NCBI GenBank assembly: GCA_038874655.1
Contig: JAVZBY010000002.1
Location: forward strand, 1-24,000
Reading direction: 5' to 3'
DNA: 24,000 nucleotides
Origin: Candidatus Woesearchaeota archaeon
GTDB lineage: Archaea > Nanobdellota > Nanobdellia > Woesearchaeales > GW2011-AR15
Shown: piece by piece, positions 973 through 23,796 of the stretch
Position numbering within the stretch: position 1 is the stretch's first letter
Layout of the letters: each line of letters begins with the position of its first letter
Translations under genes and position numbers: made by a program
Notes under the pieces: model-generated
Told to the model about the DNA's origin: nothing
What the model saw: the letters and a program-made list of their open reading frames with translations, nothing else
Databases searched by the model: none

Positions 973-1632
973 ATGTTAAAAGCAGTTATATTTGATAATG
1001 ATGGTGTTTTGTCAGATTCTCACTCTAATATTAATAAATTATTTACTACCCTAGTTAATAATGAATTAAACCTTAATATATCAGAATCAGATTTTGCAAA
1101 ATATCCTGGGATGAGATTTGAACAAAGAGCTGAACAATTTGCAAAAGAAAAAGGATTAATTATTCCAAAAGAGAAAATAGAAAAACTAATAGAAAAAGGA
1201 AGAGAAATATACTTTAAAGAGATATTAAATCAAATAAAACTTTATCCAGGAGTTATTGAATTGTTGAAAGAATTGAAAGAAAACAAAATAAAAATTGGAT
1301 TAGGCACAAATGGTAGCAAAAGAACAATAATGAGATTATTTGATAATTATAATTTGCATGACTATTTTGATTCAATTGTTACTTTTGATGATGCTTCACA
1401 AGGAAAACCTCATCCTGAAATTTTTTTAAAAAACGCAGCAAACATGAAAGTTAAACCAAAAGAATGTGTTGTTATTGAAGATTCTATTGAAGGTATAATG
1501 GCAGCAAAATCTGCACATATGAAAGTTATTGCAGTAAAAACAACTTTAACAGAGAAGGAATTAAAAGATGCAGATTTAATTGTAGAAAGCATTAAAAATT
1601 TAAACCTCAAAAAAATTCAAAGTTTGTTCTAA
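973..1632 (+). CDS. HAD-superfamily hydrolase, subfamily IA (beta-phosphoglucomutase/phosphatase-like)
   Basis: HAD motif I is FDNDGVL, motif II GLGTNGS, motif III GKPHPEIF and motif IV EDSIEGIMAAKSAHM. Confidence 0.85.
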   Translation: MLKAVIFDNDGVLSDSHSNINKLFTTLVNNELNLNISESDFAKYPGMRFEQRAEQFAKEKGLIIPKEKIEKLIEKGREIYFKEILNQIKLYPGVIELLKELKENKIKIGLGTNGSKRTIMRLFDNYNLHDYFDSIVTFDDASQGKPHPEIFLKNAANMKVKPKECVVIEDSIEGIMAAKSAHMKVIAVKTTLTEKELKDADLIVESIKNLNLKKIQSLF

Positions 1633-1658: not shown

Positions 1659-2318
1659 ATGATAAAAGGCATAATCTTTGACATGGACGGAGTAATTATT
1701 GATTCTAACACATTTCATTATTATAATTGGAACTCAGTTTTTAAAAAAAAATTTAATATAGAGATCTCAAAAGAGGATTTTGCTTCTAGGTTAGGAGAAA
1801 GTGCAATCCATTTTACTGAATTTTTTATTAAAAAATATAATCTTGATAAAGAATATAATATAACAGCAGAAAAACTTTTACCAGAAATAATAGAAAAATA
1901 CAAAAATATAAATCATTTAAAATTAAAAACAGGAATTAAAGAAAAATTACCTCTTTTTAAGAAAAATTATAAAATTGCATTAGCAACAGGAGCAAATAAA
2001 GATTGGGCTATACAAGTTTTAGAGCATTTTGAAATAAAAAATTATTTTGATTATATTATAGCTGGAAATGAAGTAAAAAGAGCAAAACCAGAACCAGAAA
2101 TTTTTATAAGAGCCGCACATGGTTTAAATTTAGATACAAGCCAATGTATTGTTATTGAAGATGCAGAATTAGGTATAATAGCAGCAAAAAAAGCAGGTTG
2201 CTTTGTAATAGCAATTCCAGATGATTTAACAAAAAATCAAAATCATAATCTAGCAGATTTAAAATTAAATTCTATAAATGAATTAAATAATGAAATATTG
2301 CAAAAATTAGTAATTTGA
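1659..2318 (+). CDS. HAD-superfamily hydrolase, subfamily IA (tandem paralog)
   Basis: Motif I is FDMDGVI, motif II ALATGAN, motif III AKPEPEIF and motif IV EDAELGIIAAKKAG. It has the same length (219 aa) and orientation as the preceding gene. Confidence 0.85.
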   Translation: MIKGIIFDMDGVIIDSNTFHYYNWNSVFKKKFNIEISKEDFASRLGESAIHFTEFFIKKYNLDKEYNITAEKLLPEIIEKYKNINHLKLKTGIKEKLPLFKKNYKIALATGANKDWAIQVLEHFEIKNYFDYIIAGNEVKRAKPEPEIFIRAAHGLNLDTSQCIVIEDAELGIIAAKKAGCFVIAIPDDLTKNQNHNLADLKLNSINELNNEILQKLVI

Positions 2319-3916: not shown

Positions 3917-4477
3917 TTGTTTTTTTTTAATCTTGTGAAACAAAAAAATAAACTCTTTTTTGAAATTAGAAAAACAAACTTTTTTTTTAGATTACTTATT
4001 TTTTTGTTGTTATTCTATTTTATTTTTAAAGGAATTGCAGTTTTAGTAATTTTAATAACTCTCTCTATAGGATTAAGTTATTTAATAAATTCACTAAAAA
4101 TTAGATCTCTTGGTATAGAATTAATAACATTTATTGCAGTTTTATCAGGGATGAGATTTGGTTGGAAACTTTCTTTTATAATAACTTTTATATTGATTAC
4201 ATATCATCTAATTGCAGGAGGCTTTCTTGGAACCTATATCTTTTGGGTAATTCCTGCATATTGTTTAGCTGCGATTATTTCAAGTTTTTTTCCCCATGCT
4301 GATATCACAACATTAGGGATAATTATGACACTTGGAATTAATTTAAATAATATCTTCTTTACATCAATAACCAATATTGAATATTTACCAAAATATATGA
4401 TATATGTTATAACAAACATAATTTTTAATTTTTTATTATTTACAATTTTTGGGAAAATTTTTTTACTTTTGATGTAA
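3917..4477 (+). CDS. polytopic membrane protein, unknown function (non-ATG start likely)
   Basis: Five to six hydrophobic segments. The first in-frame ATG is codon 79, after two predicted TM helices, so a TTG (3917) or GTG (3935) start is needed to keep them. It resembles the ORF at 14996..15610 (shared ...V(I/L)TN(I/S)II... end and a basic loop before G-I-(E/N)). Confidence 0.5.
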   Translation: MFFFNLVKQKNKLFFEIRKTNFFFRLLIFLLLFYFIFKGIAVLVILITLSIGLSYLINSLKIRSLGIELITFIAVLSGMRFGWKLSFIITFILITYHLIAGGFLGTYIFWVIPAYCLAAIISSFFPHADITTLGIIMTLGINLNNIFFTSITNIEYLPKYMIYVITNIIFNFLLFTIFGKIFLLLM

Positions 4478-4629: not shown

Positions 4630-4902
4630 ATGGCAGACATCTTTAGTGTTTTTTTCAGAGAAAAACCAGCTAAAATGCTCATAGAAATGCGTAGAACAAC
4701 AAAAAAAGGTATATATGCTTCTAATATTGCAAAAGCAGTTGATTGTACTTATTCTCATGTTGTTAAAATATTACAACAAATGGAAAAATCTGGCTTAGTT
4801 GCTTTCAATAAACAAGGCAGATTAAAATATTTAACATTAACAAAAAAAGGAGAAGAAGTTGCTAATTATATTGATAAAATAAGTCAAACTTTAAAAGAAT
4901 AA
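4630..4902 (+). CDS. small winged-helix (ArsR/MarR-like) transcriptional regulator
   Basis: 90 aa. The segment IYASNIAKAVDCTYSHVVKILQQMEKSGLVAFNKQGRLKYLTLTKKGEEV matches the HTH + wing (beta-hairpin G-R) pattern. Confidence 0.65.
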   Translation: MADIFSVFFREKPAKMLIEMRRTTKKGIYASNIAKAVDCTYSHVVKILQQMEKSGLVAFNKQGRLKYLTLTKKGEEVANYIDKISQTLKE

Positions 4903-4959
4903 TTTTATAATTCTATTACATTACTTTATTTTTTAAAAACTTTTTATAAACTTAATTAT

Positions 4960-5032
4960 AGCCCTGTGGTGTAGCGGTCAATCATGCAAGGCTCTGGACC
5001 TTGAGACCCAGGTTCGAATCCTGGCAGGGCTA
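4960..5032 (+). tRNA. tRNA-Gln (anticodon CUG)
   Basis: Hand-folded cloverleaf. Acceptor stem AGCCCTG/CAGGGCT (7 bp, A1:U72), discriminator A, no encoded CCA. Anticodon stem CAAGG/CCTTG with loop CT-CTG-GA. T-arm CCAGG-TTCGAAT-CCTGG. Variable loop of 4 nt. It is a GC-rich island in AT-rich DNA. Confidence 0.9.
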
Positions 5033-5060
5033 TAAACAAGAAGAATAGCAATGACGAGAT

Positions 5061-5089
5061 AGAAAATGCTAATGGAATAAACATTTTCT
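5061..5089. terminator. stem-loop between the convergent tRNA and reductase genes
   Basis: AGAAAATG (5061..5068) pairs perfectly with CATTTTCT (5082..5089) around a 13-nt loop, with T-rich flanks. The function is not established. Confidence 0.2.
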
Positions 5090-5126
5090 TTACCTAGTAT
5101 GGCTATTTTTTAATTATAATCTTTAA

Positions 5127-5720
5127 TTATAATATTTTTAATTTCACTAAAAAACCTTCTCCTAATTTTTTAACAGACAAAACTTTTGCTTCTAAAATGT
5201 TATTGATTTCACCATTAATCATACTAACATGATTATTACCAGCAAATACATTTGCATAGTATATAAAAAAAATATCCCATTCCTTTTCAATAATTAAACT
5301 TCTTATTACTTTACCTCCACCTTCTACTAAGATTTTTTTAATTCCTTTTTCAAACAAAATTTTTTTAATATTTTTCCAAGAAAAATCATTTGTAATTACT
5401 AAATTTTCAATTTTCTTTTTTTCTAATTTCGTTTTTTCTGATGTAATTACAATGGGGTTTCTTTCAAAAATTTTTTTATTAGAATTTAAAACTGCTTCTT
5501 TATCTAAAATTATAGGAACAGGATCTTTTCCATATCCTTTTGAGGTTAAACTTGGATTGTCAATATTAATTGTATTAGCACCAACTAAAAGTCCATCAAC
5601 TTTTGTTCTTAATTTATAAACTCTTTCAAAATCTAGTTTATCTGATAAATATCTTAAAGAAGTTAATCTACCATCTAATGAAACAGCACAATTAATTATA
5701 ACTCTAACATCATTTTTCAT
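5127..5720 (-). CDS. 2,5-diamino-6-ribosylamino-4(3H)-pyrimidinone 5'-phosphate reductase (RibD C-terminal-domain / archaeal ArfC type)
   Basis: INCAVSLDGRLT, VDGLLVGANTINIDNPSLT, GIKKILVEGGG and LGEGFLVKLK match the archaeal stand-alone reductase pattern. I prefer the ATG at 5720 (MKNDVRVI...) because GGGAG lies about 6 nt upstream; the track start at 5753 is a less likely N-extension. It overlaps the ribA stop by 11 nt. Confidence 0.85.
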   Translation of the reverse strand: MKNDVRVIINCAVSLDGRLTSLRYLSDKLDFERVYKLRTKVDGLLVGANTINIDNPSLTSKGYGKDPVPIILDKEAVLNSNKKIFERNPIVITSEKTKLEKKKIENLVITNDFSWKNIKKILFEKGIKKILVEGGGKVIRSLIIEKEWDIFFIYYANVFAGNNHVSMINGEINNILEAKVLSVKKLGEGFLVKLKIL

Positions 5721-6414
5721 TATTTCTCCCTTTTTCATTATAAAATAAGTCATCTAACATATGATGTTGTTTTATCATTTTTGTTTCTAAATATTTTTCA
5801 TTAAATTTATTAGGTTTTATTAAAACAGGAATTCTGCCATTAACAATAATTCCATATTCTTTTAACTGTTCAATTTTATTAGGATTATTTGTAATTAGTT
5901 TAATTGATTTTATCTCTAATGCTTTAATCATCAATGAAGCTATTTTATAATCTCTTTCATCTTCTTTAAACCCAAGAATTAAATTCGCTTCAACAGTGTC
6001 ATATCCTTTATCTTGCAATTCATATGCTTTGATTTTATTAATTAAACCAATACCTCTTCCTTCTTGTCTTAAATATAAAACAACACCATTTCCTAGTTCT
6101 TCAATTTTTTTTAGGGATTCTATCAATTGTCTTCTACAATCACATCTCAATGAACCTAATGCATCACCTGTTAAACATTCAGAATGTAATCTTACAGGAA
6201 CATTCTCTTTATTAGAAACATCCCCTTTTACAATAGCCACATGCTCTTTTTGGTCTTTATTATTGTAAAAAGCAACAATCTTAAAATTTCCAAATTCACT
6301 TGGTAAATTTGCTTTAGCTACTATTTCAACGCAAACATCTTTATCACAATTTCTGCAATAATGATATCTCTTAAGTAGATCATCTGAAAAATTATTAAAA
6401 TTTATATTTAACAT
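5710..6414 (-). CDS. ribA: GTP cyclohydrolase II
   Basis: RLHSECLTGDALGSLRCDCRRQL (zinc Cys triad), YLRQEGRGIGLINKIKAYELQDKGYDTVEAN and KLITNNPNK. There is an N-terminal extension of about 30 aa containing CRNCDKDVC. Confidence 0.9.
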   Translation of the reverse strand: MLNINFNNFSDDLLKRYHYCRNCDKDVCVEIVAKANLPSEFGNFKIVAFYNNKDQKEHVAIVKGDVSNKENVPVRLHSECLTGDALGSLRCDCRRQLIESLKKIEELGNGVVLYLRQEGRGIGLINKIKAYELQDKGYDTVEANLILGFKEDERDYKIASLMIKALEIKSIKLITNNPNKIEQLKEYGIIVNGRIPVLIKPNKFNEKYLETKMIKQHHMLDDLFYNEKGRNNEK

Positions 6415-6526
6415 AAAATCTAAAATAAATATTAAATTTTTAAATTTATTCTTAAACCTAATAATTAAAATAATAAAAAGATAAAAAACCTTTATTTTTA
6501 TTGACTTAAATAAAGGAAAATTTAAA

Positions 6527-7876
6527 ATGAAAAGTCTATTTATATTCAGAAGAGATTTAAGATTAAATGATAATACTGGATTAATTGAAGCATTAAAAAA
6601 TTCTGATTTTGTTATTCCTATATTTATTTTTGATGATAGACAAATTAAACAAAATGAATATTTCTCTCAAAAAGCATTTTCTTTTATGATAAACTCATTA
6701 ATAGATTTAAACAATGAACTAAGAAAAATAAATAAAAGATTATATTTTTTTCAAGGCATAGCGCATCAAGTTATAGAAAAAATTATCAAAACTGAAAAAA
6801 TTGAAGCTGTTTATTTAAATAGAGATTACACGCCTTTTAGCATACAAAGAGATGAGTCCATGAAAAAGATTTGTAAAGAAAATAATGTAAAATTTTTTTC
6901 ATTTTCAGATGCATTATTAAATGAACCTTTTACTTTAAATAAAATTTATACAATTTTTACACCGTTTTGGAAAGCATATTCTCAAATAAAAGTTAAAAAA
7001 CCACAAAAAAACACATATACAAATTATTACTCTAATAAGATAATTTCTGAAATTTCTTTTGAAAAATTTATTGAACAAAATAAAGATAAACTTGTTAATA
7101 TAAATTCAAAAACAAAAGAAGAAGTAATCAAGGATATAACAAAATTACAAAATTATGATTTAACAAGAGATTTTCCAGAGAAAGAAACATCTTTTTTATC
7201 ATCACATTTAAAATTTGGCACAATATCTGTAAGAGAAGCATTTTACTTAGTTTATGAAAAATTAAATCCTTTTCATCCTTTATTGAGACAGCTTTATTGG
7301 AGAGATTTTTTTTATCATATAGCATATCATTTTCCTTATGTATTTGGAAACCCCTTCAATAAAAAATATCAAAATATAAAATGGGAATTTGATGAAAAAA
7401 AATTTAATGCATGGAAAAATGGTTTAACAGGTTTTCCTATTATTGATGCAGGGATGAGGCAATTAAATCAAACAGGCTATATGCATAATAGAGTTAGAAT
7501 GATAGTTGCTTCATTTTTAACAAAAGATTTGCATATTGACTGGAAAATAGGAGAAAAGTATTTTGCTCAAAAACTAATTGATTATGATCCTTGTATAAAT
7601 AATGGAAATTGGCAATGGTCTGCCTCAGTTGGATGTGATGCTCAGCCATATTTTAGAATATTTAATCCATGGCTTCAACAAAAAAAATTTGATCCAAATT
7701 GTATTTATATAAAAAAATGGGTTCCAGAACTAAAAGAGTTAAAACCAGAAGAGATTCATAATTTAGAAAAAATTGATCCTTCATTAAAAGGAATAAATTA
7801 TCCTAAACCAATTATTAATCATAGTATAGAATCTAAAAAAGCAATAGCTTATTATAAAAATACAATAAAAAATTGA
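6527..7876 (+). CDS. phr: deoxyribodipyrimidine photolyase / cryptochrome family (class-I-like)
   Basis: N-terminal FIFRRDLRLNDN, then WRDFFYH, TGFPIIDAGMRQLNQTGYMHNRVRMIVASFL and NNGNWQWSASVGCDAQPYFRIFNP. Confidence 0.9.
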   Translation: MKSLFIFRRDLRLNDNTGLIEALKNSDFVIPIFIFDDRQIKQNEYFSQKAFSFMINSLIDLNNELRKINKRLYFFQGIAHQVIEKIIKTEKIEAVYLNRDYTPFSIQRDESMKKICKENNVKFFSFSDALLNEPFTLNKIYTIFTPFWKAYSQIKVKKPQKNTYTNYYSNKIISEISFEKFIEQNKDKLVNINSKTKEEVIKDITKLQNYDLTRDFPEKETSFLSSHLKFGTISVREAFYLVYEKLNPFHPLLRQLYWRDFFYHIAYHFPYVFGNPFNKKYQNIKWEFDEKKFNAWKNGLTGFPIIDAGMRQLNQTGYMHNRVRMIVASFLTKDLHIDWKIGEKYFAQKLIDYDPCINNGNWQWSASVGCDAQPYFRIFNPWLQQKKFDPNCIYIKKWVPELKELKPEEIHNLEKIDPSLKGINYPKPIINHSIESKKAIAYYKNTIKN

Positions 7877-10054: not shown

Positions 10055-10510
10055 ATGGCAAGAATGCATTCAAGAAGAAAAGGTAAATCAGGAAGCAAAA
10101 AACCATCTAAAAAAAGCACATATTCCTGGATGAGTTATAAGCCAAAAGAAATAGAAATGTTAATCATAAAATTAGCAAAAGAAGGAAATACACCATCAAA
10201 AATCGGTTTAATTCTAAGAGACACTTATGGTATTCCAGATGTAAAAGCAATTTTAAAGAAAAATATCTCAGATATTTTAGAGAAAAAAGAATTATTGCCT
10301 AAAGTTCCAGAAAATTTAGCAGCATTATTAAAAAGAGTAATTGACTTACAAAAACACTTGGAAAATAACAAAAAAGACCAAGTTGCAAAAAGAGGTCTAT
10401 TACTTACAGAATCCAAAATAAGAAGACTAGTAAAATATTACAAAAAGACAGGAAAATTACCAGAATCCTGGAACTATGATCCAGCAAGAGTAAAATTATT
10501 AATTGAATAA
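10055..10510 (+). CDS. rps15: 30S ribosomal protein uS15 (archaeal S15P/S13e type)
   Basis: MARMHSRRKGKSGSKKP N-terminus, 151 aa, with ...KDQVAKRGLLLTESKIRRLVKYYKKTGKLP. The SD GAGGT lies at 10044..10048. Confidence 0.95.
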   Translation: MARMHSRRKGKSGSKKPSKKSTYSWMSYKPKEIEMLIIKLAKEGNTPSKIGLILRDTYGIPDVKAILKKNISDILEKKELLPKVPENLAALLKRVIDLQKHLENNKKDQVAKRGLLLTESKIRRLVKYYKKTGKLPESWNYDPARVKLLIE

Positions 10511-10520
10511 ACTTAAACAA

Positions 10521-11924
10521 ATGGTTTATTCAAATTTTTTTTCTTTTCTTAAAGAAGTTTCTGAAAAATTTAAAAAAATAGACAAATCTGAAACTATAAG
10601 ATTAATAAGCCATCATGATGCAGATGGTATTTGCTCAGCTTCTATAATGATTAGAGCATTAGAAAATGAAAACTACAAATATAATTTGTCTATAATAAAA
10701 CAATTAACAGAAATAGAATTAAAACAATATCAAAATGAAAATTACAATAACTATGTTTTTACAGATTTGGGTTCTGGGCAATATAATTTAATAAAAAAAT
10801 ATCTTGCTAAAAAAACAATTTTTATTTTTGACCATCACACTTTTGATTTAAATTTATTGAAAAATAATTCTGAAAATATAATAATGGTTAATCCTCATAT
10901 GTTTAATATTGATGGTTCAAGTGAAATATCAGGCTCAGGTGTTACCTATTTATTTGCACAAACCCTAAATGAAAAAAACAAAGAATTAAGTTATTTAGCA
11001 ATAATTGGTTCACTTGGGGATGTTCAAGAAAGTAATGGCTTTACCTCATTAAATAAATATATTTTGGATATAGCAATAAATCAAGGCAAAATAAAAATTG
11101 AAAAAAATTTAAAGTATTATGGTTTGGAAACAAAACCTATATATTATTTGTTAGCATATGGAGATATTTATATTCCTAATATATCAGGTAAGGAAAGCAA
11201 TGCAATACAATTTTTGAATGAGATTGGTATTGAACCAAAAATAAATGGTAAATGGAAAAAATTCAATGATTTAAATGAAAAAGAAAAAAAGCAATTAATA
11301 AGTTCAATCATAATAAAAAGAGGCTCACTTCAAGAACCTGAGAATATTATAGGAAACAGATATTTATTAGTTGATGAGCCAGAATCAAGTTCGTTAAGAG
11401 ATTTAAAAGAATTTGCTACATTAATAAATGCATGTGGCAGACTTGAAAAAGCTTCTTTGGGCATTGGTTTATGTTTAAATAATCCAGAATTGAAAAAAAA
11501 AGCATTACAATTACAAGATGAATATAAAAAAGAAATAATAAATGCCCTAAATTGGTATGAAAAAAACAATTCTCAACACATAATAAAATCAGAAAAATAC
11601 ATTATAATTAATGCAAAAAATAACATTATGCCTTCTATAATTGGGACAATAGCTTCTATTATCTCAAACTCAGATATTCCAATTGGAACATTAGTTTTAG
11701 CATTAGCATATGATAATGATTCAATAAAAGCATCTCTTAGAATAAAAACATCGCCTGAAAAAAAAGAAACCCTAAATTTAAGAGACTTTTTAGTAAAGCT
11801 TTCTGAAAAGACGGGTTGTCAAGCAGGTGGTCATAAAAACGCAGCAGGTGCTATTATTCCAAAGGAAAAAGAGCAATTATTTATAGATGAATTTATTAAA
11901 CTTATAGAACTTGAGAATTCATAA
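10521..11924 (+). CDS. RecJ-like DHH/DHHA1 phosphoesterase (archaeal GAN/Cdc45-RecJ family candidate)
   Basis: DHH motif I is SHHDADGICSA, motif II FTDLGSG, motif III IFIFDHH, and the DHHA1 motif is QAGGHKNAAGA. It starts 10 nt after the rps15 stop. I prefer the ATG at 10521 over the track's TTG at 10503. Confidence 0.8.
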   Translation: MVYSNFFSFLKEVSEKFKKIDKSETIRLISHHDADGICSASIMIRALENENYKYNLSIIKQLTEIELKQYQNENYNNYVFTDLGSGQYNLIKKYLAKKTIFIFDHHTFDLNLLKNNSENIIMVNPHMFNIDGSSEISGSGVTYLFAQTLNEKNKELSYLAIIGSLGDVQESNGFTSLNKYILDIAINQGKIKIEKNLKYYGLETKPIYYLLAYGDIYIPNISGKESNAIQFLNEIGIEPKINGKWKKFNDLNEKEKKQLISSIIIKRGSLQEPENIIGNRYLLVDEPESSSLRDLKEFATLINACGRLEKASLGIGLCLNNPELKKKALQLQDEYKKEIINALNWYEKNNSQHIIKSEKYIIINAKNNIMPSIIGTIASIISNSDIPIGTLVLALAYDNDSIKASLRIKTSPEKKETLNLRDFLVKLSEKTGCQAGGHKNAAGAIIPKEKEQLFIDEFIKLIELENS

Positions 11925-12840: not shown

Positions 12841-13458
12841 ATGTTAGAAAAAGCATTATTTAGAAAGCATACAAAATTGTTTTTATACATGTCTGTTAGG
12901 CAATATTTTAGTCAGAAAGAATTAATAATCTTTTCTTTATCTCATAGGGAATTTAAAGACAAGGATTCAATAGAAAATAAAGGACAATTTTTAGACAAAC
13001 TTATTAATTTAGGCATAATAAAAAAATACAAATATAAAGATTTTATAAAAAAATATCCTGAAAAAATAAGAGCAGCTTCTATAGCGTATCAAAAATCACA
13101 TGAGAGAAAAAGAATAATTTTAGAGTTTAAAATTGAACAATTCTTAGCTCTTGATTTTCCATTCATAAAAAAAATAAAAAATTTTGAATTGCCTTTTAAA
13201 GAATATATTAATCAATTTTATGATATAAATACAAATAAACTGCATAAAAATCTTAATTATTCCATTAAAGAATTAATTACCTTTTTTTTATATGGCTGTT
13301 CTCTTGCAAAAATCTACTTTACAAAATATGAAAAAATTTTAAACCAACTGAAAAAAATAAAATATCATACAACTTTAGAAAACTTAAATAAGGATAGTCT
13401 TTTTTTTATAAAAATTGCTCAAGAACAGATGGAATCAAAATTAAAAAATTCTTTTTAA
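12841..13458 (+). CDS. hypothetical protein (205 aa), possibly with an N-terminal winged-helix-like segment
   Basis: A long ORF in a coding-dense region with a K/I/N-rich composition. GQFLDKLINLGIIKKYKY is weakly wing-like. No confident motif. Confidence 0.4.
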   Translation: MLEKALFRKHTKLFLYMSVRQYFSQKELIIFSLSHREFKDKDSIENKGQFLDKLINLGIIKKYKYKDFIKKYPEKIRAASIAYQKSHERKRIILEFKIEQFLALDFPFIKKIKNFELPFKEYINQFYDINTNKLHKNLNYSIKELITFFLYGCSLAKIYFTKYEKILNQLKKIKYHTTLENLNKDSLFFIKIAQEQMESKLKNSF

Positions 13459-14995: not shown

Positions 14996-15610
14996 ATGTC
15001 ACTTTTAAAATATAATCAACTACTTAACTTTAATGATGAAAAAGATTTTCTAAAAAAAGAATTATCCTTCATAGATAAAATATTACCTTCTATAAAAAAA
15101 AATTTTATCCTTAAAATTTTAATATTTATTTTGATTTTGATTATGCTATATAAATATCATAAATTCTTTATAATAATTATTTCTATTTTGTTAATACAAT
15201 ATATAAAATTTAAAAGGACAAAACACGGAATTAATTTTGAGATAGAACCTTCTTATTTAATAGCATTAGCAATAACCTTAACATATGGTTTAGAATATGG
15301 AGTGATATTTATAATACTACCCCTAGTTTTATCTTTTTCAGGATTTAATATAGGTGTAATAGTTAATTTTTCAAATAAATTAATTTTTATAATTTCTGTT
15401 TATTTATATTGGACCTTTACAAAAAATATATTCTTTTTAACATATTTTGCCATATTTATTGTTATTTTAACTGATGTTATAGGTTTTTTTATAAGAAAGA
15501 GATTTGGACAAAATTTATTAGAAATATTACAAGTGGTTTTAACAAACTCTATAATAAGATGGATTTACTTTTCTTTTTTTCTAAATTTAATAATTAATAT
15601 AATTAAATAA
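14996..15610 (+). CDS. polytopic membrane protein, unknown function (possible paralog of 3917..4477)
   Basis: 204 aa with 5-6 hydrophobic segments and no cysteine. The basic loop KFKRTKHGINFEIE and the end VLTNSIIRWIYFSFF resemble KIRSLGIEL and VITNIIFNFLLFTIF in the other ORF. Confidence 0.5.
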   Translation: MSLLKYNQLLNFNDEKDFLKKELSFIDKILPSIKKNFILKILIFILILIMLYKYHKFFIIIISILLIQYIKFKRTKHGINFEIEPSYLIALAITLTYGLEYGVIFIILPLVLSFSGFNIGVIVNFSNKLIFIISVYLYWTFTKNIFFLTYFAIFIVILTDVIGFFIRKRFGQNLLEILQVVLTNSIIRWIYFSFFLNLIINIIK

Positions 15611-17684: not shown

Positions 17685-17993
17685 CTAAATCTTTAAGTCA
17701 ACTCTTTTTATAGCTTTTTTATTTTTAATTTTTTCAAATTTTTAGATACTTTATCGTCTATACTTTATAATAAAATTAAATTTTTAATTACTTATAAAGA
17801 TTGCGGAATTTTTTTATAGCAATTAAACATAATGTTTAAAAATAAACCTATTTCTTAAATAAGTTATATTTAGGAAATTCAACCAATAACTTTTAAATAA
17901 ATACCAAAAACTTTTTAATAGAATATTTATTTTAATTAAAATAAATTATAACTAAAAGTAATTTAATACTTAAATTTAGGAGGGGTGGTTTTT

Positions 17994-19832
17994 TTGTCAA
18001 CAAAATCTAAACCAATAAAAAAGAGCCATACAGAATTTCATGGTGTGGCAAGAAAAAGTAATAAAAAAACATGGATGCTAATCTCAGGTATATTAGCAAT
18101 AGCATTAATAATTTCAATATTTACAAATGGCTTTTATTTCAATAATTTAAAGTTAGCAGAAAACATTTTAAAAAAAGAATCACAAAAAATAACAAATTCA
18201 GAGGCAAAATCTAAATTAAATAATGCTTTAGAATCTTTAAGTAGTGCAATTTCTTTGATTGAATCAGAAAAAAAATCTTCAACAAGTTCTACATATACAG
18301 GAAAAAAAGTCAAACTTGAATTTTACGTTATGAGTCAATGTCCTTATGGTATTCAAGTAGAAAATGCAGTAAAGCCAGTTTTAGATAAATTAGGTGATGC
18401 TGTTGATTTTAGTATTAATTTTATAGCAACAGATTTAGGCAATGGTCAATTCCAAAGTTTACATGGACAAAATGAAGTTTTAGGAAATATTGTTCAATTG
18501 TGTGCAATGAAATATGAGCCAAAAAAATACATGGATTTAATTGTTTGTATGAATAAAAACGCAGCACAAATTCCAGATAATTGGGAATCATGTGCTAGAG
18601 AGAATGGATTAAATGTAGATAAAATAAAATCTTGTTATGTAGGAGATGAAGGAAAACAATTGCATTCTGAATCAATAAAAAAATCAGAAACAGTAAAAGC
18701 AACAGGTAGTCCTACAATGTATATCAATGGTAAACAATATAATGGTGGTCGTGATACAACCTCATTTTTTAGAGCATTATGCGCAGAAATACCAGATCAT
18801 AAAGCATGTTCAGAAATTCCAAAACCAAAAGATGTTAATTTAATAATAATAAATGATAAACAGTGTGCACAATGTCAACAATATAATTCATTAGCTGACC
18901 AATTAAAAAGTTTATTCCCAGGTTTGAAAACAAAAATATTGGACTATGAAGAACAAGAAGGACAAAAACTTTATAATGAATTAAACTTGAAATTTTTGCC
19001 TGTTTTCTTGTTTGATAAATCAGTAGAAGAAGGAGAGGGTTATAGTAATGTGCAAATGTATTTAGACAAAGTAGGGGATTACTATAGTTTAAGAATAGGT
19101 GCAAATTATGACCCAAAAGCAGAAGTTTGTAATGATGGTAAAGATAACAGAGACAATGATGGTAAAGTAGATTGTCAAGATGATGAATGTAAGAACTATT
19201 GGCAATGCATGGAAAAAAAGGATAAGCCAGAAGTACAATTATTTGTAATGAGCCATTGTCCATTTGGAACACAAATGGAAAAAGGCATTTTGCCTGTTGT
19301 TGAATTATTAGGAAACAAAATTGACTTTAAAGTAAGATTTGTATATTATGCAATGCATGGTGAAGTAGAAGTTAAAGAACAAATAAGACAATATTGCATA
19401 CAAAAGGAGCAATCTGATAAATACTTAAGCTATTTAAAATGCTTCTTAGAAGCAGGAGAAACAGATAAATGTTTAACACAAGCAAACATTGATAAGACAA
19501 AATTAGACACATGTTATGAAAAAACAGATAAAGAATTTAATGTAATGGCAAACTTCAATGATAAAACAACATGGTTAAGTGGCAGATATCCTCTATTTAA
19601 CATAGATAAACAACTAAATGAAAAATATGGTGTTCAAGGAAGTCCAACATTAGTAGTTAATGATGTTGTTGTTGAAACAGCAAGAGATCCAAATAGTTTA
19701 TTAAAAACAATTTGCACTGGTTTCAAAGAACAACCAAGTGAATGTGATAAGCAATTACCAACAACAGGATTTAGTGCAGGCTTTGGCTATAATGAAGCAG
19801 ATACTAATACATTAGCAGGTTGTGGTGTCTAA
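17994..19832 (+). CDS. membrane-anchored multi-thioredoxin-fold protein (GILT/DsbA-like module, CAQC Trx-like module, Cys/Asp-rich motif, second GILT/DsbA-like module)
   Basis: Basic N-tail followed by one TM helix (MLISGILAIALIISIF). Module A: EFYVMSQCPYG ... HGQNEVLGN..QLCA ... GSPTMYING. Module B: IIINDKQCAQCQ ... FLPVFLF. Linker: CNDGKDNRDNDGKVDCQDDEC. Module C: QLFVMSHCPFG ... GSPTLVVND. I prefer the TTG at 17994, which lies 5 nt after GGAGGGGTGG; the track's GTG at 17985 sits inside that SD. Confidence 0.75.
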   Translation: MSTKSKPIKKSHTEFHGVARKSNKKTWMLISGILAIALIISIFTNGFYFNNLKLAENILKKESQKITNSEAKSKLNNALESLSSAISLIESEKKSSTSSTYTGKKVKLEFYVMSQCPYGIQVENAVKPVLDKLGDAVDFSINFIATDLGNGQFQSLHGQNEVLGNIVQLCAMKYEPKKYMDLIVCMNKNAAQIPDNWESCARENGLNVDKIKSCYVGDEGKQLHSESIKKSETVKATGSPTMYINGKQYNGGRDTTSFFRALCAEIPDHKACSEIPKPKDVNLIIINDKQCAQCQQYNSLADQLKSLFPGLKTKILDYEEQEGQKLYNELNLKFLPVFLFDKSVEEGEGYSNVQMYLDKVGDYYSLRIGANYDPKAEVCNDGKDNRDNDGKVDCQDDECKNYWQCMEKKDKPEVQLFVMSHCPFGTQMEKGILPVVELLGNKIDFKVRFVYYAMHGEVEVKEQIRQYCIQKEQSDKYLSYLKCFLEAGETDKCLTQANIDKTKLDTCYEKTDKEFNVMANFNDKTTWLSGRYPLFNIDKQLNEKYGVQGSPTLVVNDVVVETARDPNSLLKTICTGFKEQPSECDKQLPTTGFSAGFGYNEADTNTLAGCGV

Positions 19833-19868: not shown

Positions 19869-20240
19869 ATGAAAAAAATTTATTTTTTTTTATTTTTTAT
19901 AACATTTATTCTATTTTTAAGTTCATGTTCAAAAAATAACATAGAAACAAAAAATTTAGATAATTTTGCTGAATGTATTGCAAATTCTAATGCAAAATTA
20001 TATGCAGCATTTTGGTGTCCTCATTGTAAAGAACAAAAAGAAATGTTTGGTTCTTCATGGGATAAAATAAAAGATAGAGTTTATGTTGAATGTTCAAATC
20101 CAGATAGGACACAAACAGAAATATGCAGACAACAAAACATTAGAGGTTATCCAACCTGGAAATTCTCAGATGGTTCAGAATTATTAGGAAAACAAGATTT
20201 TTACACATTAGCACAAAAAACAGGTTGTGAACTTAACTGA
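19869..20240 (+). CDS. secreted/lipobox-anchored thioredoxin-like protein (homolog of the Trx domain fused to bacterial VKOR)
   Basis: Signal peptide MKKIYFFLFFITFILFLSSC with an L-S-S-C lipobox-like site. KLYAAFWCPHCKEQKEMFG ... YVEC ... GYPTW resembles the CPHC Trx-like domain of cyanobacterial VKOR fusions. The SD GAGGA lies at 19858..19862. Confidence 0.7.
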   Translation: MKKIYFFLFFITFILFLSSCSKNNIETKNLDNFAECIANSNAKLYAAFWCPHCKEQKEMFGSSWDKIKDRVYVECSNPDRTQTEICRQQNIRGYPTWKFSDGSELLGKQDFYTLAQKTGCELN

Positions 20241-20410
20241 ATTTAGAAAATTTTATTTTATATTTATTACTTTAAGTTTATTTACTTAAAAGCGATAAGA
20301 AATCTTTATAAATAAATTCTTTTCATTTCATTAAATACAAACTAAATACATAGTATATTAAAAAAATTCATAAAAAATTTTAAAAATAACTTTTTTTAAT
20401 TGGTGAAAAC

Positions 20411-20650
20411 ATGGCTAAACTCTATAAAGTAAGAAAGAAATGTATGATATGTGGAAATGTATTTTACCCAAAATATGCTGGCTCACTTTATTGTGAGGAT
20501 TGTAAAAAAAAAAAGAAAGAAGAAGCAAAAAAACAAAAAAAATTGGAAGAAAAACAAAAAAAAGAAAAAAAATCTCCAAAAACAAAAAAACCTAAAAAAG
20601 AATTAACTAAACAAAAAATTAGTAAGAAATCAAAAACTAAAAGAAAATAG
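20411..20650 (+). CDS. zinc-ribbon protein with a poly-lysine tail
   Basis: CMICGNVFYPKYAGSLYCEDC (CxxC-x15-CxxC) is followed by about 50 aa that are mostly K/E. The SD GGTGA lies at 20402..20406. The gene contains an A11 run at 20497..20507. Confidence 0.6.
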   Translation: MAKLYKVRKKCMICGNVFYPKYAGSLYCEDCKKKKKEEAKKQKKLEEKQKKEKKSPKTKKPKKELTKQKISKKSKTKRK

Positions 20651-20787
20651 TTTTATTAGTTTTAAAATAAGCAGTTTATAAAAAAATAATCCCCCTAATT
20701 TTCAAAACCTTTTTAGTAGTTCTTATTTTTAATTTTCTATATCACAACTCCGTTTTATTTTTAAATTATGTCTCTTTCTAAGATTTA

Positions 20788-21135
20788 ATGCTAAAAGTTG
20801 AAATTTTCACAAGTCCAACATGTCCTTATTGTCCTCATGCAGTAAAATTAGCAAAAGAATTATTGAAAGAAAGGAATGATTTCAAGATTGTTGAAACAAG
20901 CACAGGAACATATGAGGGAAGAAAAAGAGCAGAAAACTTTGATGTAAGAAGTGTGCCAACTTTATTTATAACAGGCCCCGGAACACAAGAAAGAATTGGT
21001 TATGTTGGAGTGCCATCAAAAAATACATTCAATAAAATGTTAGATATTGCATTAGGCAAAGAAAAATGGCCAGAACAAGAAAAAAAAGAATCAATCTTTT
21101 CAAGACTTTTTAATAAATTAAAAAGTACAAAATAA
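20788..21135 (+). CDS. thioredoxin/glutaredoxin-like protein (archaeal CPYC small redox protein)
   Basis: KVEIFTSPTCPYCPHAVKLAKELL ... VRSVPTLFI (cis-Pro loop). There is no signal peptide. The C-terminal tail is charged. Confidence 0.8.
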   Translation: MLKVEIFTSPTCPYCPHAVKLAKELLKERNDFKIVETSTGTYEGRKRAENFDVRSVPTLFITGPGTQERIGYVGVPSKNTFNKMLDIALGKEKWPEQEKKESIFSRLFNKLKSTK

Positions 21136-21207
21136 AAATAATAGTCCCTAAAAACTTAATCAAAATAAACAAAAATTAAAAAAATCAATATAATGGAGGT
21201 AATTAAA

Positions 21208-21447
21208 ATGCCAAGAGTAAAAGTTTATACTACACCAAGTTGCCCATATTGTTATATGTTAAAAGAATATTTAAGGGCTAACAAGGTTGATTTTGAGGAT
21301 GTAGATGTTTCAAGTGATTATGAAGCAGCAATGGAAATGATAGAAAAATCAGGCCAAAGAGGTGTTCCAGTAGCAGATATTGATGGCCATATTGTAGTTG
21401 GGTTTGATCAACCAAGAATTGCAAGATTATTAAATTTAAGAAGGTAA
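21208..21447 (+). CDS. glutaredoxin-like protein (NrdH/YruB-like)
   Basis: VKVYTTPSCPYCYMLKEYLRANKVDFEDVDV ... GQRGVPVADIDGHIVVGF. I prefer the ATG at 21208 because the track's upstream ATGGAGGT (21193) supplies the SD GGAGGT 7 nt before it. Confidence 0.8.
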   Translation: MPRVKVYTTPSCPYCYMLKEYLRANKVDFEDVDVSSDYEAAMEMIEKSGQRGVPVADIDGHIVVGFDQPRIARLLNLRR

Positions 21448-22311: not shown

Positions 22312-23775
22312 TTAATTTTCAATATTTTTTAAATAATCTTCTATTTTTTTCAAAACCTCTTCTTTATTTATGCTGCTAAATCTCAAAGTTCCTGCATAAT
22401 CATGACCACCGCCATCAATTAAAGCATATGGCATTTTTTCTTTTAAATAGTCTATTAATTTTATTAAACTAAAATTAACATCATCTGCTCTAAAAATTAT
22501 TGAATCTTCACTTATTACCATAGTAATTCTTTTTCCTGTAAATAAGTCATTAGTAATTCTAGGTAATTTACTTCCAATGTAATCATAATTAACAACATCT
22601 CTATTTATCTTTATTATTTTTATTCCATTAAGGTTTTCAATAACTGCGTTTTTTTCAATTGCTTTTTTAACTAAATCTTCTTTATACTTTATAAAATAAA
22701 ATATTTCTTGAATTATTTTTTCCCTTGTTTCATTATAAAAAAATAAATCATTCAATAATTCAGAGCTTTCATTAAATTTTAGATGATATAAATCATAATC
22801 AATTGCAATTGCCCATTCCTTTAATTTTTCTAAAGTAAAATTTGAAAGTTTCAAATATTCTTCATATTCATAACCATTAGATTTATCAGCAGTTCCAGAT
22901 AAAGCTGGTAAATGATTAAATTTATTTGGATTTAATTCAGGGTTAATAAAAAAAGCCAATTCTGTTGATAAAGATCCAGCATTAATTTCAGATCCGAAAT
23001 CAAAAACATGTGGATTTAAAAAAACTTTGGAAATTTCTTTATTCTCTTTATCATATTTATGATGATCAATAATAACAAAATCAAAGCCATATTTACTTAA
23101 TCTTTTTAATGAAGGATAACTTTGACTATTGCTTCCTAAATCGCACAATATAATTAATGGCGCTTTTTCATCATATTTTTCTTTTGCATCTAAATAGTCA
23201 TTTAAATCTCTTAAAGCATCAATATAATCATAATAAGGACTTCGTGATGATATTCTTGTTAAAAACAAATGGCTTTTATCATTAATCTCTTTAATTAAGG
23301 GCAAAATCGCTTTTTCTAAAATATAGCCAGACACATAACCATCAACATCATCATGATGTCTTATAATAATTGGTCTATTTTCATCTATGGTTTTTTCAAT
23401 AATTTTAGCAGCTTCTATAAACAAAGGTCTTAATTTTTCTAATTTTTCTGATTTTATTAGAAAAGGCTTTTTTTCTAAATTAATTTTTTCAATTACATTT
23501 TGATTTATTTTTTCATAATTTAAAAGTTCAACTTCAATATTTCCTAATCTCTCTTTTACTAAGATTTTTGCTTGAATATTATTTCCAATAACTAAATTAG
23601 GAAAGGCTCTTTCACCTGCTTTTAAAAAACCAGTTGCTTTAATAACACCAGTATTATCTTTTAAATCAAAAATCGTGGGCCCAGAGGTTTGCCTTATTGA
23701 TTTTACTTGTGCTATTAAAAAGTATTCTTTTCCAATCTTATCTTTGGTAATTTCTTTTATTTTTATATAATCCAT
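22312..23775 (-). CDS. DHH/DHHA1 phosphoesterase with an N-terminal OB-fold (second RecJ-like paralog)
   Basis: OB-like IAQVKSIRQTSGPTIFDLKDNTGVIKATGF...IQAKILVKE. DHH motif I is IIRHHDDVDGYVSG, motif II ILCDLGSN, motif III VIIDHHK, and the DHHA1 motif is DGGGHDYAGT. I prefer the ATG at 23775 over the track's TTG at 23790. Confidence 0.75.
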   Translation of the reverse strand: MDYIKIKEITKDKIGKEYFLIAQVKSIRQTSGPTIFDLKDNTGVIKATGFLKAGERAFPNLVIGNNIQAKILVKERLGNIEVELLNYEKINQNVIEKINLEKKPFLIKSEKLEKLRPLFIEAAKIIEKTIDENRPIIIRHHDDVDGYVSGYILEKAILPLIKEINDKSHLFLTRISSRSPYYDYIDALRDLNDYLDAKEKYDEKAPLIILCDLGSNSQSYPSLKRLSKYGFDFVIIDHHKYDKENKEISKVFLNPHVFDFGSEINAGSLSTELAFFINPELNPNKFNHLPALSGTADKSNGYEYEEYLKLSNFTLEKLKEWAIAIDYDLYHLKFNESSELLNDLFFYNETREKIIQEIFYFIKYKEDLVKKAIEKNAVIENLNGIKIIKINRDVVNYDYIGSKLPRITNDLFTGKRITMVISEDSIIFRADDVNFSLIKLIDYLKEKMPYALIDGGGHDYAGTLRFSSINKEEVLKKIEDYLKNIEN

Positions 23776-23796
23776 TTTAATTAATTTCAATTTTTT

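Follow-up and report, generated by a model that had tools for sequence, protein, structure and literature searches.

We identified a tandem GILT-like protein in which two GILT-type modules keep the nucleophilic cysteine of the active site and carry glycine at the position of the resolving cysteine. A plain thioredoxin-like module separates the two, and the chain closes with a tail that bears a further cysteine. The substitution of the resolving cysteine by glycine, or by alanine in some relatives, is a family-wide trait. By its sequence relationships the gene falls within a large branch of the GILT family, a family with a DsbA-like thioredoxin fold; this branch is prokaryotic and uncharacterised. 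We propose, with a probability of roughly one half, that the protein is a membrane-anchored, outward-facing thiol-disulfide exchange enzyme, namely an isomerase or reductase with a split active site that would be recycled by thioredoxin.

Gene and protein layout

The gene lies in a 24-kb window, by which we mean the whole stretch of DNA that was analysed, and its features are collected in Table 1. The NCBI copy of the protein (P0001, QXE31_01705) starts three codons later, is 612 amino acids long and is 100% identical; the identical 612-aa protein is encoded on a 274-kb Ca. Woesearchaeota contig. With this transmembrane signal-anchor, everything beyond it in the chain is predicted to lie extracellularly. 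Archaeal homologues have the same N-terminal layout, whereas bacterial homologues carry a signal peptide and a lipobox cysteine instead. Because the N-termini are either signal-anchors or lipobox sequences, an extracytoplasmic location is predicted for both groups. An earlier note on this DNA covered part of the gene, and the anchor, the stalk, the four-cysteine linker and C613 were not mentioned there.

Table 1. Coordinates of the tandem GILT-like gene, its parts and the adjacent thioredoxin gene.
Feature	Coordinates	Strand	Size or basis
Whole ORF, tandem GILT-like protein	17985..19832	+	615 aa + stop
Lys-rich cytoplasmic N-terminus (aa 1-29) and single TM signal-anchor (~aa 30-52)	17985..18140	+	sequence; AF2 helix 27-46
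Helical stalk (aa 54-97), joins membrane anchor to module A	18144..18275	+	AF2 helices 54-68, 72-97
Module A (aa 108-278), GILT-type Trx fold with helical insert	18306..18818	+	Pfam, PDB profile, Foldseek, DSSP
C119-P-Y-G122, active-site position of module A	18339..18350	+	translation, homologue alignment
Module B (aa 283-375), plain Trx-like fold	18831..19109	+	PDB profile matches, DSSP
C294-A-Q-C297 of module B	18864..18875	+	translation
Acidic four-Cys linker (aa 378-410; C382, C397, C402, C408), joins modules B and C	19116..19214	+	alignments
Module C (aa 415-590), second GILT-type module	19227..19754	+	Pfam, BLASTP, PDB profile, DSSP
C425-P-F-G428, active-site position of module C	19257..19268	+	translation, homologue alignment
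C-terminal tail (aa 591-615), ending A-G-C613-G-V	19755..19829	+	homologue alignments, models
C613 codon (terminal Cys, 21st cysteine of protein)	19821..19823	+
Adjacent gene, small exported lipobox-type thioredoxin with WCPHC	19869..20240	+	Pfam Thioredoxin 3.6e-8

Modules A and C are GILT-type duplicates

The earlier note had described modules A and C as an internal duplication of GILT/DsbA-like units that share active-site motifs, a cis-Pro loop and a matching skeleton of seven cysteines. The two modules align with E = 5e-20 at 25% identity (BLASTP), which marks them as internal duplicates and not as a chance resemblance. The translation places CPYG, CPFG and CAQC where the note had them, together with both cis-Pro-type loops, GSPTM (aa 241-245) in module A and GSPTL (aa 552-556) in module C. 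The cysteine offsets that it had given also match exactly: module A has cysteines at 119, 173, 188, 203, 217, 266 and 275 (offsets 0, 54, 69, 84, 98, 147, 156), and module C at 425, 471, 486, 496, 510, 577 and 587 (offsets 0, 46, 61, 71, 85, 152, 162). The shared skeleton is real, and it is the skeleton of the GILT family. All six non-catalytic cysteines of each module align with cysteines of mammalian GILT, with C173, C188, C203, C217, C266 and C275 aligning with those of the mouse and other mammalian proteins.

Profile and structure comparisons matched both GILT and DsbA and confirmed that modules A and C have thioredoxin folds of this type, as the note had supposed. On the 615-aa protein, the Pfam family GILT (PF03227) scores 58.2 bits over two stretches against a gathering cut-off of 22.4, with E 1.1e-15 listed for module A. 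DSBA (PF01323) reaches 34.4 bits (cut-off 25.6) and Thioredoxin_4 (PF13462) 36.6 bits (cut-off 23.2). Homologues carry precomputed PF03227 annotation, in some cases twice. The PDB profile search finds mouse GILT (6nwx, E 7.7e-9), and the same structure is the top PDB match in a Foldseek search with the AF2 model (E 1.8e-8, target-normalised TM 0.77), followed by DsbAs; the DsbA of S. aureus is among the best matches. The model has a pLDDT of 88.3 and contains three thioredoxin-fold units according to DSSP, and a second AF2 model, of a short-tail homologue, has a pLDDT of 90. In the models each lone cysteine caps the N-terminus of a helix and each S-P-T loop lies ahead of a strand. In module A, C119 caps helix 120-139 and S242-P243-T244 precedes strand 244-247; in module C, C425 caps helix 426-445 and S553-P554-T555 precedes strand 555-558.

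The profile alignment to 6nwx begins past the active site, which was placed by a direct MAFFT alignment with mammalian GILTs. There, the first cysteine of CPxG aligns with the first cysteine of the mammalian CxxC; a gap follows it, and G122 corresponds to the second GILT cysteine by position (+3) and not by aligned column. At the GILT signature, which we take to be C-Q-H-G-x2-E-C-x2-N-x4-C, module A reads S-L-H-G-Q-N-E-V-L-G-N-I-V-Q-L-C; the first two cysteines are replaced, and what remains of the signature is H, G, E, N with the final cysteine. Among homologues of module C, C486 and C496 are lost jointly (both in 16, against 1), and a C486-C496 disulfide is implied because the two disappear together. 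From this pair, 471-510 is predicted as a second one in module C and, by homology, 188-203 and 173-217 as their counterparts in module A; 266-275 and 577-587 are further predicted pairs. C119, C425 and C613 would then be free or linked to one another.

Single-cysteine active sites across the family

The CxxC of catalytic GILTs and of DsbA is absent from modules A and C. In the larger alignment, which comprises 195 full-length homologues, the nucleophilic cysteine is present in every sequence at both position 119 (195/195) and position 425 (195/195). The fourth position of the active site tolerates few residues: position 122 is glycine in 161 sequences, alanine in 25, cysteine in 3, serine in 3, phenylalanine in 2 and threonine in 1, and position 428 is glycine in 168, alanine in 21 and cysteine in 6. 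Over both modules, glycine or alanine accounts for about 96%, cysteine for about 2% and serine for about 1%. The earlier note had argued that the change is conserved and not a one-off mutation, and had named homologues mostly carrying CxxC as the observation that would speak against this; the alignment sides with conservation. A sequencing artefact or a lineage outlier is ruled out by the identical NCBI protein and by a motif that is invariant in hundreds of homologues.

The surroundings of the cysteine are conserved as well. Without exception, 40 homologues carry M-S-x-C-P-(Y/F)-G in module A and again in module C, and M116 and M422, three residues before the cysteine, are 100% conserved (n = 195). 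Both S-P-T and M-S-x-C-P-(Y/F) are strictly conserved in the two modules of archaeal and bacterial proteins alike. Such strict conservation argues that catalysis has been retained and that the site has not decayed.

The C-terminal cysteine

An invariant cysteine is found 0-3 residues from the C-terminus in the family, on a tail of G, A, S, T and P residues. The tails are at least 14 amino acids long (median 17), 76% of their residues are G/A/S/T/P, and glycine occupies position -2 in 74%. The terminal cysteine is present in 155 of 157 proteins with CPxG in both modules, is kept in the transmembrane-anchored archaeal and the lipoprotein bacterial versions alike, and is also retained in single-module relatives. 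Four of eight proteins from divergent branches that combine CPxA in module A with CPxG in module C are without it, and of the six proteins whose module C has CPxC, three possess it. In both AF2 models the last 4-5 residues have a pLDDT below 50 and the tail cysteine is undocked, which speaks neither for nor against a transient disulfide.

The earlier note had inferred a single-thiol chemistry. The resolving cysteine is indeed gone from the modules, but the inference may be incomplete, as the invariant tail cysteine could take over resolution from a distance.

Module B and the acidic linker

Module B resembles the N-terminal unit of the Pyrococcus protein disulfide oxidoreductase (1j08, 2.7e-6; 1a8l, 7.9e-6; PDB profile search) and has a beta-alpha-beta-alpha-beta order of secondary structure (DSSP). 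D291, C294, C297, F311, D320 and P339 are invariant in the homologue alignment, P339 being the cis-Pro position. The earlier note had taken the cysteine pair for a bona fide CxxC. Here the pair does sit at the canonical thioredoxin position, but its spacing ranges from two to four residues across the family (CxxC in 152, CxxxC in 26 and CxxxxC in 14 of 195 homologues). A catalytic role of the pair is insecure because the spacing varies and the two cysteines are separated by charged residues that differ between homologues.

The acidic linker has four cysteines in 165 of the 195 homologues, none in 26, eight in 3 and twelve in 1. The four-cysteine unit is gained, lost or duplicated as one block. 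It gives weak matches to the NCBIfam acidic double-disulfide repeat (NF033662) and to the teneurin Cys-rich region.

Neighbouring genes

The exported thioredoxin gene follows the tandem GILT-like gene after a gap of 37 nucleotides. In a PDB search its product matches the thioredoxin-like domain of VKOR (3kp8, 7.6e-15) and PDI a-domains. An exported thioredoxin gene is likewise located directly downstream of the homologue at three other loci (L004, L007 and L028), and a fusion of thioredoxin to a CcdA-like domain takes this place at six (L003, L009, L015, L035, L043 and L060). The CcdA-like assignment is based on a sub-threshold Pfam match (19 bits, E 9e-4) together with NPC/PC motifs. The exported thioredoxin is a likely redox partner of the tandem GILT-like protein. 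This idea is weakened by an association that is partial in archaea and absent from bacterial loci: of about 45 archaeal loci, about 10 have an exported thioredoxin or Trx-CcdA-like gene beside the homologue, no bacterial locus has either, and all-against-all clustering of the ORFs at 81 loci found no universal neighbour.

Proposed function and alternatives

In the exchange enzyme that we propose, C119 and C425 would attack disulfides of exported clients and form mixed disulfides. Attack on the mixed disulfide by a third thiol of the client would result in isomerisation. Alternatively, the tail cysteine would serve as the remote resolving thiol, so that the client would leave reduced and an intramolecular disulfide between active site and tail would remain. 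This disulfide, or the pair of module B, would then be recycled by an exported thioredoxin, here presumably the product of the gene 37 nt downstream and in some relatives a thioredoxin that forms one polypeptide with a CcdA/DsbD-like membrane electron transporter. Overall, the protein would act as a disulfide isomerase or reductase on surface proteins, which fits with GILT being a reductase. The isomerase activity of PDI requires only the N-terminal cysteine of CxxC and is retained with CxxS sites. A CxxS mutant of GILT initiates reduction and does not complete it (PMC6060088). The natural CxxS protein mosGILT has no detectable reductase activity, which weakens the proposal. Involvement of the tail is made less secure by the imperfect link between the terminal cysteine and the type of active site, and by the fact that one tail cysteine cannot serve both active sites simultaneously. 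The reducing direction of electron flow is in turn weakened by the resemblance of the downstream thioredoxin to VKOR-linked thioredoxin domains, which belong to oxidising pathways.

Electrons could indeed flow the other way if the protein were a DsbA-like oxidase, donating a split disulfide between the CPxG and tail cysteines (or the disulfide of module B) to exported proteins and being re-oxidised by the neighbouring thioredoxin or a membrane oxidase. Such an enzyme would have the DsbA-like fold and extracytoplasmic location seen here. CP(Y/F)x resembles the CPYC of S. aureus DsbA, one of the best structural matches, and the thioredoxin domain most similar to the downstream protein comes from VKOR, an oxidising system. 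In addition, these cells must have some oxidising route, since the protein itself, linker included, depends on many structural disulfides. However, neither DsbB nor VKOR was found among the Pfam-scanned ORFs of the 24-kb window, and several relatives are associated with electron importers of CcdA/DsbD type, which work in the reducing direction. GILT, the closest family that has been characterised, is a reductase, and many of the hosts are anaerobes, as inferred from organism names. On balance we regard an oxidase as unlikely. Catalysis might also be missing altogether, with the GILT-like modules serving as rigid, disulfide-stapled scaffolds for binding or chaperoning, as in the thioredoxin-like domain of plant vacuolar sorting receptors, and the lone cysteine being structural or tethering the protein, for example to a surface-layer partner. 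The lack of a resolving cysteine in about 96% of the family would suit this role, as would the inactivity of mosGILT (CxxS) as a reductase and the match of the module profile to the thioredoxin-like domain of VSR1 (8r4y, 2.5e-7). However, inactive thioredoxin-like domains normally lose their active-site and cis-Pro motifs, and in this family neither M-S-x-C-P-(Y/F)-G nor S-P-T varies in module A or module C, in archaea or as far away as Myxococcota. With the fourth position under selection for small residues only, and with recurrent genomic linkage to exported thioredoxins, we would be rather surprised by a purely non-catalytic function.

The full conservation of M116 and M422 allows for yet another role, in which the protein would handle a non-protein ligand and not protein disulfides. 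Together with the tail thiol, the Met(-3)/Cys pair would form a site for a soft metal, for example Cu(I), or these groups would carry sulfur as persulfide or polysulfide, or else a low-molecular-weight thiol. Two DsbA-like copper-resistance proteins (6nen and 6mhh) are among the weak PDB matches, and the linker, acidic and rich in cysteine, is a possible cation-binding site. However, these PDB matches are insignificant (E 0.3-0.7), modules A and C match no metal-binding family in Pfam or NCBIfam, and no genes of metal or sulfur metabolism were found nearby; a non-protein ligand therefore seems very improbable to us. Returning to thiol-disulfide exchange, its components might be joined in a more specific scheme, which we put forward tentatively and with some doubt. 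The family would represent a widespread, unrecognised class of prokaryotic extracytoplasmic oxidoreductases in which the CxxC of the thioredoxin fold is split, with the nucleophile on a GILT-type module and the resolving cysteine at the end of a flexible, swinging C-terminal arm that would connect the active sites with an exported thioredoxin or a CcdA-like partner by ferrying redox equivalents. The same class would also be the prokaryotic stock of the eukaryotic lysosomal GILT.

Relation to known thiol-disulfide systems

The protein shares with GILT the thioredoxin fold with a helical insert, the position of the nucleophilic cysteine, the H-G-x2-E...C core and six aligned cysteines. In contrast, GILT is a single-domain, soluble, lysosomal protein of eukaryotes with CxxC and with thiol reductase activity at acidic pH, whereas here two copies with CP(Y/F)G are found in a membrane-anchored prokaryotic protein from which the two cysteines of the GILT 'CQHGxxEC' signature are absent. 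The extra thioredoxin module, the four-cysteine linker and the tail with its terminal cysteine go beyond GILT. Mosquito mosGILT and further CxxS proteins of GILT type in eukaryotes are likewise natural members of the family that keep the first active-site cysteine only. However, they have serine where glycine or alanine is found here, and they are single-domain eukaryotic proteins with a hydrophobic C-terminus that are reported to be inactive.

DsbA, BdbD and MdbA are similar in their DsbA-type fold, their tethered or lipoprotein location outside the cytoplasm, the CPY-x context and the cis-Pro loop. They differ from the present protein, which is tandem, is without the second active-site cysteine, has no DsbB or VKOR in its window and carries the GILT cysteine skeleton. 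As in PDI and the Pyrococcus enzyme PfPDO (1a8l/1j08), several thioredoxin-fold modules are combined in one chain, and module B is close to the N-terminal unit of PDO. However, PDI and PDO consist of plain thioredoxin units with CxxC, whereas here the outer modules are single-cysteine units of GILT/DsbA type and the cysteine pair is confined to module B.

Relays through a cysteine near the C-terminus operate in the DsbA-like Deinococcus FrnE (C-terminal CxxxxC), mammalian thioredoxin reductase (GCUG) and Erv2 (CGC). The likeness is one of concept, namely a flexible C-terminal arm with a redox-active cysteine near the chain end and glycine neighbours; the PDB profile match to Deinococcus FrnE is insignificant (E 0.5). 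Their arms also have two redox residues beside a complete CxxC or flavin site, whereas a single cysteine would act here with a single-cysteine site. The tetrapeptide CPYG itself is found in the active site of another member of the thioredoxin superfamily, Sinorhizobium meliloti Grx3, a glutaredoxin domain fused to MauE (PMC6315971). However, SmGrx3 has a glutaredoxin fold, belongs to another family with another architecture and is without the GILT insert and cysteine skeleton. Membership of the monothiol glutaredoxins, whose site reads CGFS or, as in SmGrx3, CPYG, finds no support in the 615-aa protein, which has no Pfam Glutaredoxin match and a fold of GILT/DsbA type.

Distribution of the family

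The family is present in at least 597 species and comprises at least 2571 clusters at 50% identity. Archaeal members are transmembrane-anchored proteins of DPANN and Altiarchaeota, and bacterial members are lipoproteins of Myxococcota, Spirochaetales and Oligoflexia. The earlier note had not recognised the three-module architecture as that of a described protein. We likewise found no paper on it in the literature on GILT, DsbA, PF03227, CPYG, archaea and Myxococcus, and no curated NCBIfam model, the matches there being weak and sub-threshold. However, the architecture is widespread rather than lineage-specific, and databases already auto-annotate its members as 'GILT family' or 'DsbA family' proteins.

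GILT has been treated as a eukaryotic, lysosomal enzyme of antigen processing, and how the family originated is a question for which a large archaeal and bacterial branch with the full GILT cysteine skeleton is relevant. DPANN and Altiarchaeota rely on elaborate surface proteins, and the conserved, membrane-tethered protein, together with the exported thioredoxin encoded next to it, is a specific candidate for their extracytoplasmic disulfide machinery. If our reading is true, the CPxG/A site and the invariant terminal cysteine would constitute a new active-site layout among thiol-disulfide oxidoreductases. The lipoprotein orthologues of Myxococcota may offer experimental access to the family. 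As late as 2008, prokaryotic GILT homologues were stated to be unknown (PMC2398784).

Other features of the window

An ORF antisense to the tandem GILT-like gene (18835..19272) was rejected as a mechanical reading frame without support. As for a DsbB or VKOR in the window, none of the three ORFs without a family match (3917-4477, 12841-13458 and 14996-15610) carries paired cysteines. A tRNA-Gln was the single feature identified when the window was scanned with Rfam and for tRNAs.

The GILT-like protein and its active sites

The GILT-like gene lies in DNA of about 24% G+C that also carries genes for the archaeal ribosomal proteins S3Ae and S13/S15. Its product is 100% identical to a 612-aa protein (P0001) encoded on a 274-kb contig in a Candidatus Woesearchaeota MAG. 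Translation confirmed the CPYG, CPFG, CAQC and GSPT(M/L) motifs reported in the earlier note, as well as the seven cysteines of each outer module (A, aa 108-278; C, aa 415-590), with exactly the spacing it had counted. The proposed internal duplication is borne out by BLASTP, which identifies modules A and C as homologous (E = 5e-20, 25% identity). The N-terminal anchor, helical stalk, four-cysteine acidic linker and C613 were not part of that description.

Features of the GILT-like gene and of neighbouring genes (window nucleotides, or positions in a homologue's genomic locus where an L handle is given)
Feature	Coordinates	Strand	Residues or motif	Remark
GILT-like ORF	17985..19832	+	615 aa	GTG start
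Lys-rich N-terminus and TM anchor			aa 1-52	
Helical stalk			aa 54-97	
Active-site motif, module A	18339..18350	+	C119-P-Y-G	translation
S-P-T loops			GSPTM aa 241-245; GSPTL aa 552-556	translation
Module B			aa 283-375	plain Trx-like unit
Module B Cys pair	18864..18875	+	C294-A-Q-C297	translation
Acidic linker			C382, C397, C402, C408	
Active-site motif, module C	19257..19268	+	C425-P-F-G	translation
Terminal Cys			C613	21st Cys, three residues from C-terminus
Exported Trx	19869..20240		WCPHC	small, lipobox-type; 37 nt downstream of GILT-like gene
Zinc-ribbon protein	20411..20650			Lys-rich, DUF7564-like
MJ0307-type thioredoxin	20788..21135		CPYC	
Glutaredoxin-like protein	21193..21447		CPYC	
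Trx-multi-pass fusions	L003:7546-8766; L009:7724-8992; L035:7654-8814; L043:7067-8308; L060:8600-9847			
Trx-multi-pass fusion	L015:2285-3910			about 900 nt downstream, not adjacent

The protein scores 58.2 bits against Pfam GILT (PF03227; cut-off 22.4 bits), and its Thioredoxin_4 and DSBA matches likewise exceed the Pfam thresholds. In an AlphaFold2 model built from an alignment of 40 homologues (mean pLDDT 88.3), the lone cysteine of each outer module directly precedes a long helix (strand 109-115, C119, helix 120-139; strand 416-421, C425, helix 426-445), and the S-P-T loops directly precede strands 244-247 and 555-558. This modelled layout has the geometry of a canonical Trx-fold active site and cis-Pro loop. 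The top Foldseek match in the PDB is mouse GILT (6nwx, E 1.8e-8, TM 0.77 on target), followed by DsbA proteins of S. aureus, M. tuberculosis and others, and the GILT/DsbA-type fold anticipated for both modules is thus supported by Pfam, Foldseek and the model. Profile searches of PDB sequences match 6nwx (7.7e-9 with a module-only profile), the plant VSR1 Trx-like domain and DsbA/BdbD.

In the profile alignments C173, C188, C203, C217, C266 and C275 coincide with GILT cysteines, and direct alignment pairs C119 and C425 with the first cysteine of the mammalian CxxC (CGGC, CSGC, CGAC); in the MAFFT alignment a gap follows that residue, and G122 and G428 are matched to the second GILT cysteine solely by position (+3). 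The seven-cysteine skeleton is therefore that of GILT with the resolving cysteine replaced. As the protein has the HMM score, fold and skeleton of GILT and lacks the CxxC, we classify it as a GILT-family variant, a prokaryotic, tandem, single-Cys, tail-Cys branch distinct from a standard GILT or DsbA.

Conservation and distribution

The replacement is a family trait. All 40 full-length homologues of a first alignment carry (Y/F)(V/I/L)-M-S-x-C-P-(Y/F)-G in each outer module without exception, together with S-P-T. Among 195 aligned full-length homologues C119, C425, M116, S117, M422 and S423 are each present in all 195, position 122 is G in 161, A in 25, C in 3, S in 3, F in 2 and T in 1, and position 428 is G in 168, A in 21 and C in 6. 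We looked for the outcome that would have made this lineage an outlier, homologues mostly with CxxC, and found instead CPYG 303 times, CPFG 74, CP(F/Y)A 54, CP(Y/F)C 12 and CP(Y/F)S 4 in a census of 262 proteins. Replacement of the resolving cysteine is limited to small residues, unlike the Ser found in mosGILT and other CxxS members of the GILT-like proteins of eukaryotes.

A full HMMER scan with module A gave 2571 representatives of 50% identity clusters at E <= 1e-3, 245 of them at E <= 1e-30, and relatives occur in at least 597 species when each species is represented by one genome. Hosts among the matches listed include Woesearchaeota, Nanoarchaeota, Nanohalarchaeota and Altiarchaeota in the Archaea, and Myxococcota and other 'Deltaproteobacteria', Spirochaetales, Oligoflexia and Sumerlaeota in the Bacteria. 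The N-terminus is a Lys-rich stretch with a TM helix in archaeal proteins and a signal peptide with a lipobox Cys in bacterial ones; either layout places the modules beyond the cytoplasmic membrane. Relatives with a single module (220-250 aa) also exist. Many records with the DPANN-type gene (L002, L004, L008, L009 and other loci) are titled 'uncultured Methanosarcinales archaeon'; the gene there has the Lys-rich, TM-anchored N-terminus, and the titles may not match the real lineage.

Prokaryotic GILT homologues were stated in 2008 not to be known (PMC2398784). Our literature search found no paper on the present family, nor did we find a dedicated model in NCBIfam; members are labelled 'GILT family protein', 'DsbA family protein', 'glutaredoxin' or 'hypothetical'.

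The terminal cysteine

In all 40 homologues the chain ends in G-x-C followed by zero to three residues. The cysteine is present in 155 of the 157 proteins with Gly at both sites, the two exceptions being truncated fragments, and single-module forms keep it as well (P0165, P0173, P0200, P0209). It follows the last structural cysteine by at least 14 residues (median 17). G, A, S, T and P make up 76% of the segment between them, and Gly occupies -2 in 126 of 170; the last four to five residues have no confident AlphaFold placement in the window protein or in one short-tail homologue. Archaeal TM-anchored and bacterial lipoprotein forms share this residue. Because anchoring changes from one domain to the other and the terminal cysteine stays, this residue is unlikely to be a lipid or sorting signal specific to either domain; it is most simply read as a functional thiol carried by a flexible arm. 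The correlation with active-site type is looser in divergent branches: with CPxA in module A and CPxG in module C the cysteine is present in four and absent in four, and with CPxC in module C it is present in three of six.

Other cysteines and module B

C486 and C496 are both absent in 16 sequences and one alone in a single sequence. This co-loss implies a probable C486-C496 disulfide, and C471 would therefore pair with C510. The homologous pairs in module A would be C188-C203 and C173-C217, and C266-C275 and C577-C587 may serve as C-terminal staples. The linker cysteines vary as a unit, through gain, loss or duplication (four in 165 sequences, none in 26, eight in 3, twelve in 1), and the linker weakly resembles an acidic double-disulfide repeat. 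Of the 195 homologues, 32 (P0032 and P0117 among them) have a further four-Cys mini-domain, C-x-SDADC-...-C-...-C-EY, inserted between module A and module B; the window protein does not have it.

Among solved structures, module B is closest in sequence to the N-terminal unit of Pyrococcus protein disulfide oxidoreductase (1j08, 2.7e-6; 1a8l, 7.9e-6). The spacing of its cysteine pair varies among homologues: 152 have CxxC, 26 have CxxxC and 14 have CxxxxC, with variable and often charged residues inside (CKEC, CKDC, CAEC). A second model, of a short-tail homologue, puts the pair in a loop ahead of the helix, a predicted placement unusual for a catalytic CxxC, and module B may therefore be structural or only loosely redox-active.

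Neighbouring genes

Within the window the GILT-like gene is followed by a run of thiol-redox genes (19869..21447). The first product, the exported Trx, has as its nearest matches the Synechococcus VKOR Trx domain (3kp8, 7.6e-15) and PDI a-domains, and a similar small exported Trx lies downstream at the archaeal loci L004, L007 and L028. Six archaeal loci have, downstream of the homologue, a gene that joins an exported Trx (CxxC) to a multi-pass membrane domain in which NPC and PC motifs occur. This domain matches DsbD_TM/SfLAP weakly (19 bits, E 9e-4, below the Pfam threshold), which suggests that it is CcdA-like and that the fusion resembles a Trx-CcdA/DsbD-type electron conduit. Across 81 related loci no universal neighbour was found.

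Two multi-pass hydrophobic ORFs in the window have no Pfam match; with one Cys (3917..4477) and none (14996..15610), they are not DsbB- or VKOR-like. At L081, on a Woesearchaeota chromosome (OY970338.1), the gene at 4387-7662, which adjoins that of the homologue, encodes a 1091-aa fusion of STT3 (AglB-type oligosaccharyltransferase) and PPIase (rotamase) domains; it is unusual for two activities of extracytoplasmic protein maturation to be joined in this way.

Proposed function

The evidence fits best with a thiol-disulfide exchange enzyme that faces outward. Anatomy, conservation, location and partial gene linkage are observed; all chemical steps and the direction of electron flow are inferred. 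C119 and C425 would act as nucleophiles, forming mixed disulfides with client proteins. A client thiol might then resolve these, leaving the client isomerised; PDI with CxxS sites retains isomerisation activity. Alternatively, C613 could act as a remote resolving thiol, giving an intramolecular disulfide that the exported Trx partner would recycle. The interpretation given in the earlier note was largely right, and incomplete in that it missed the tail cysteine and the variability of module B.

Three rivals deserve mention. The protein could be an oxidase of the DsbA type whose disulfide is split; no DsbB or VKOR gene was found among the ORFs of the 24-kb window. It could also be a scaffold with no catalytic role, comparable to mosGILT or to the Trx-like domain of VSR. 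Thirdly, the invariant Met/Cys pair might bind a metal or sulfane sulfur. The predicted exchange enzyme would bear on thiol-redox biology and on DPANN cell surfaces.

Other features of the window

Within the GILT-like gene lies an antisense 145-aa ORF (18835..19272, minus strand), a mechanical ORF in AT-rich DNA for which we found no supporting evidence. Two adjacent same-strand genes for HAD-superfamily hydrolases of 219 aa each (973..1632 and 1659..2318) appear to be tandem paralogues. Two DHH-family proteins are encoded at 10503..11924 and 22312..23790, one with DHH-CID and DHHA1 and the other with an N-terminal OB fold (RecJ/GAN-like). The sole RNA gene detected is a tRNA-Gln (CTG) at 4959..5033.
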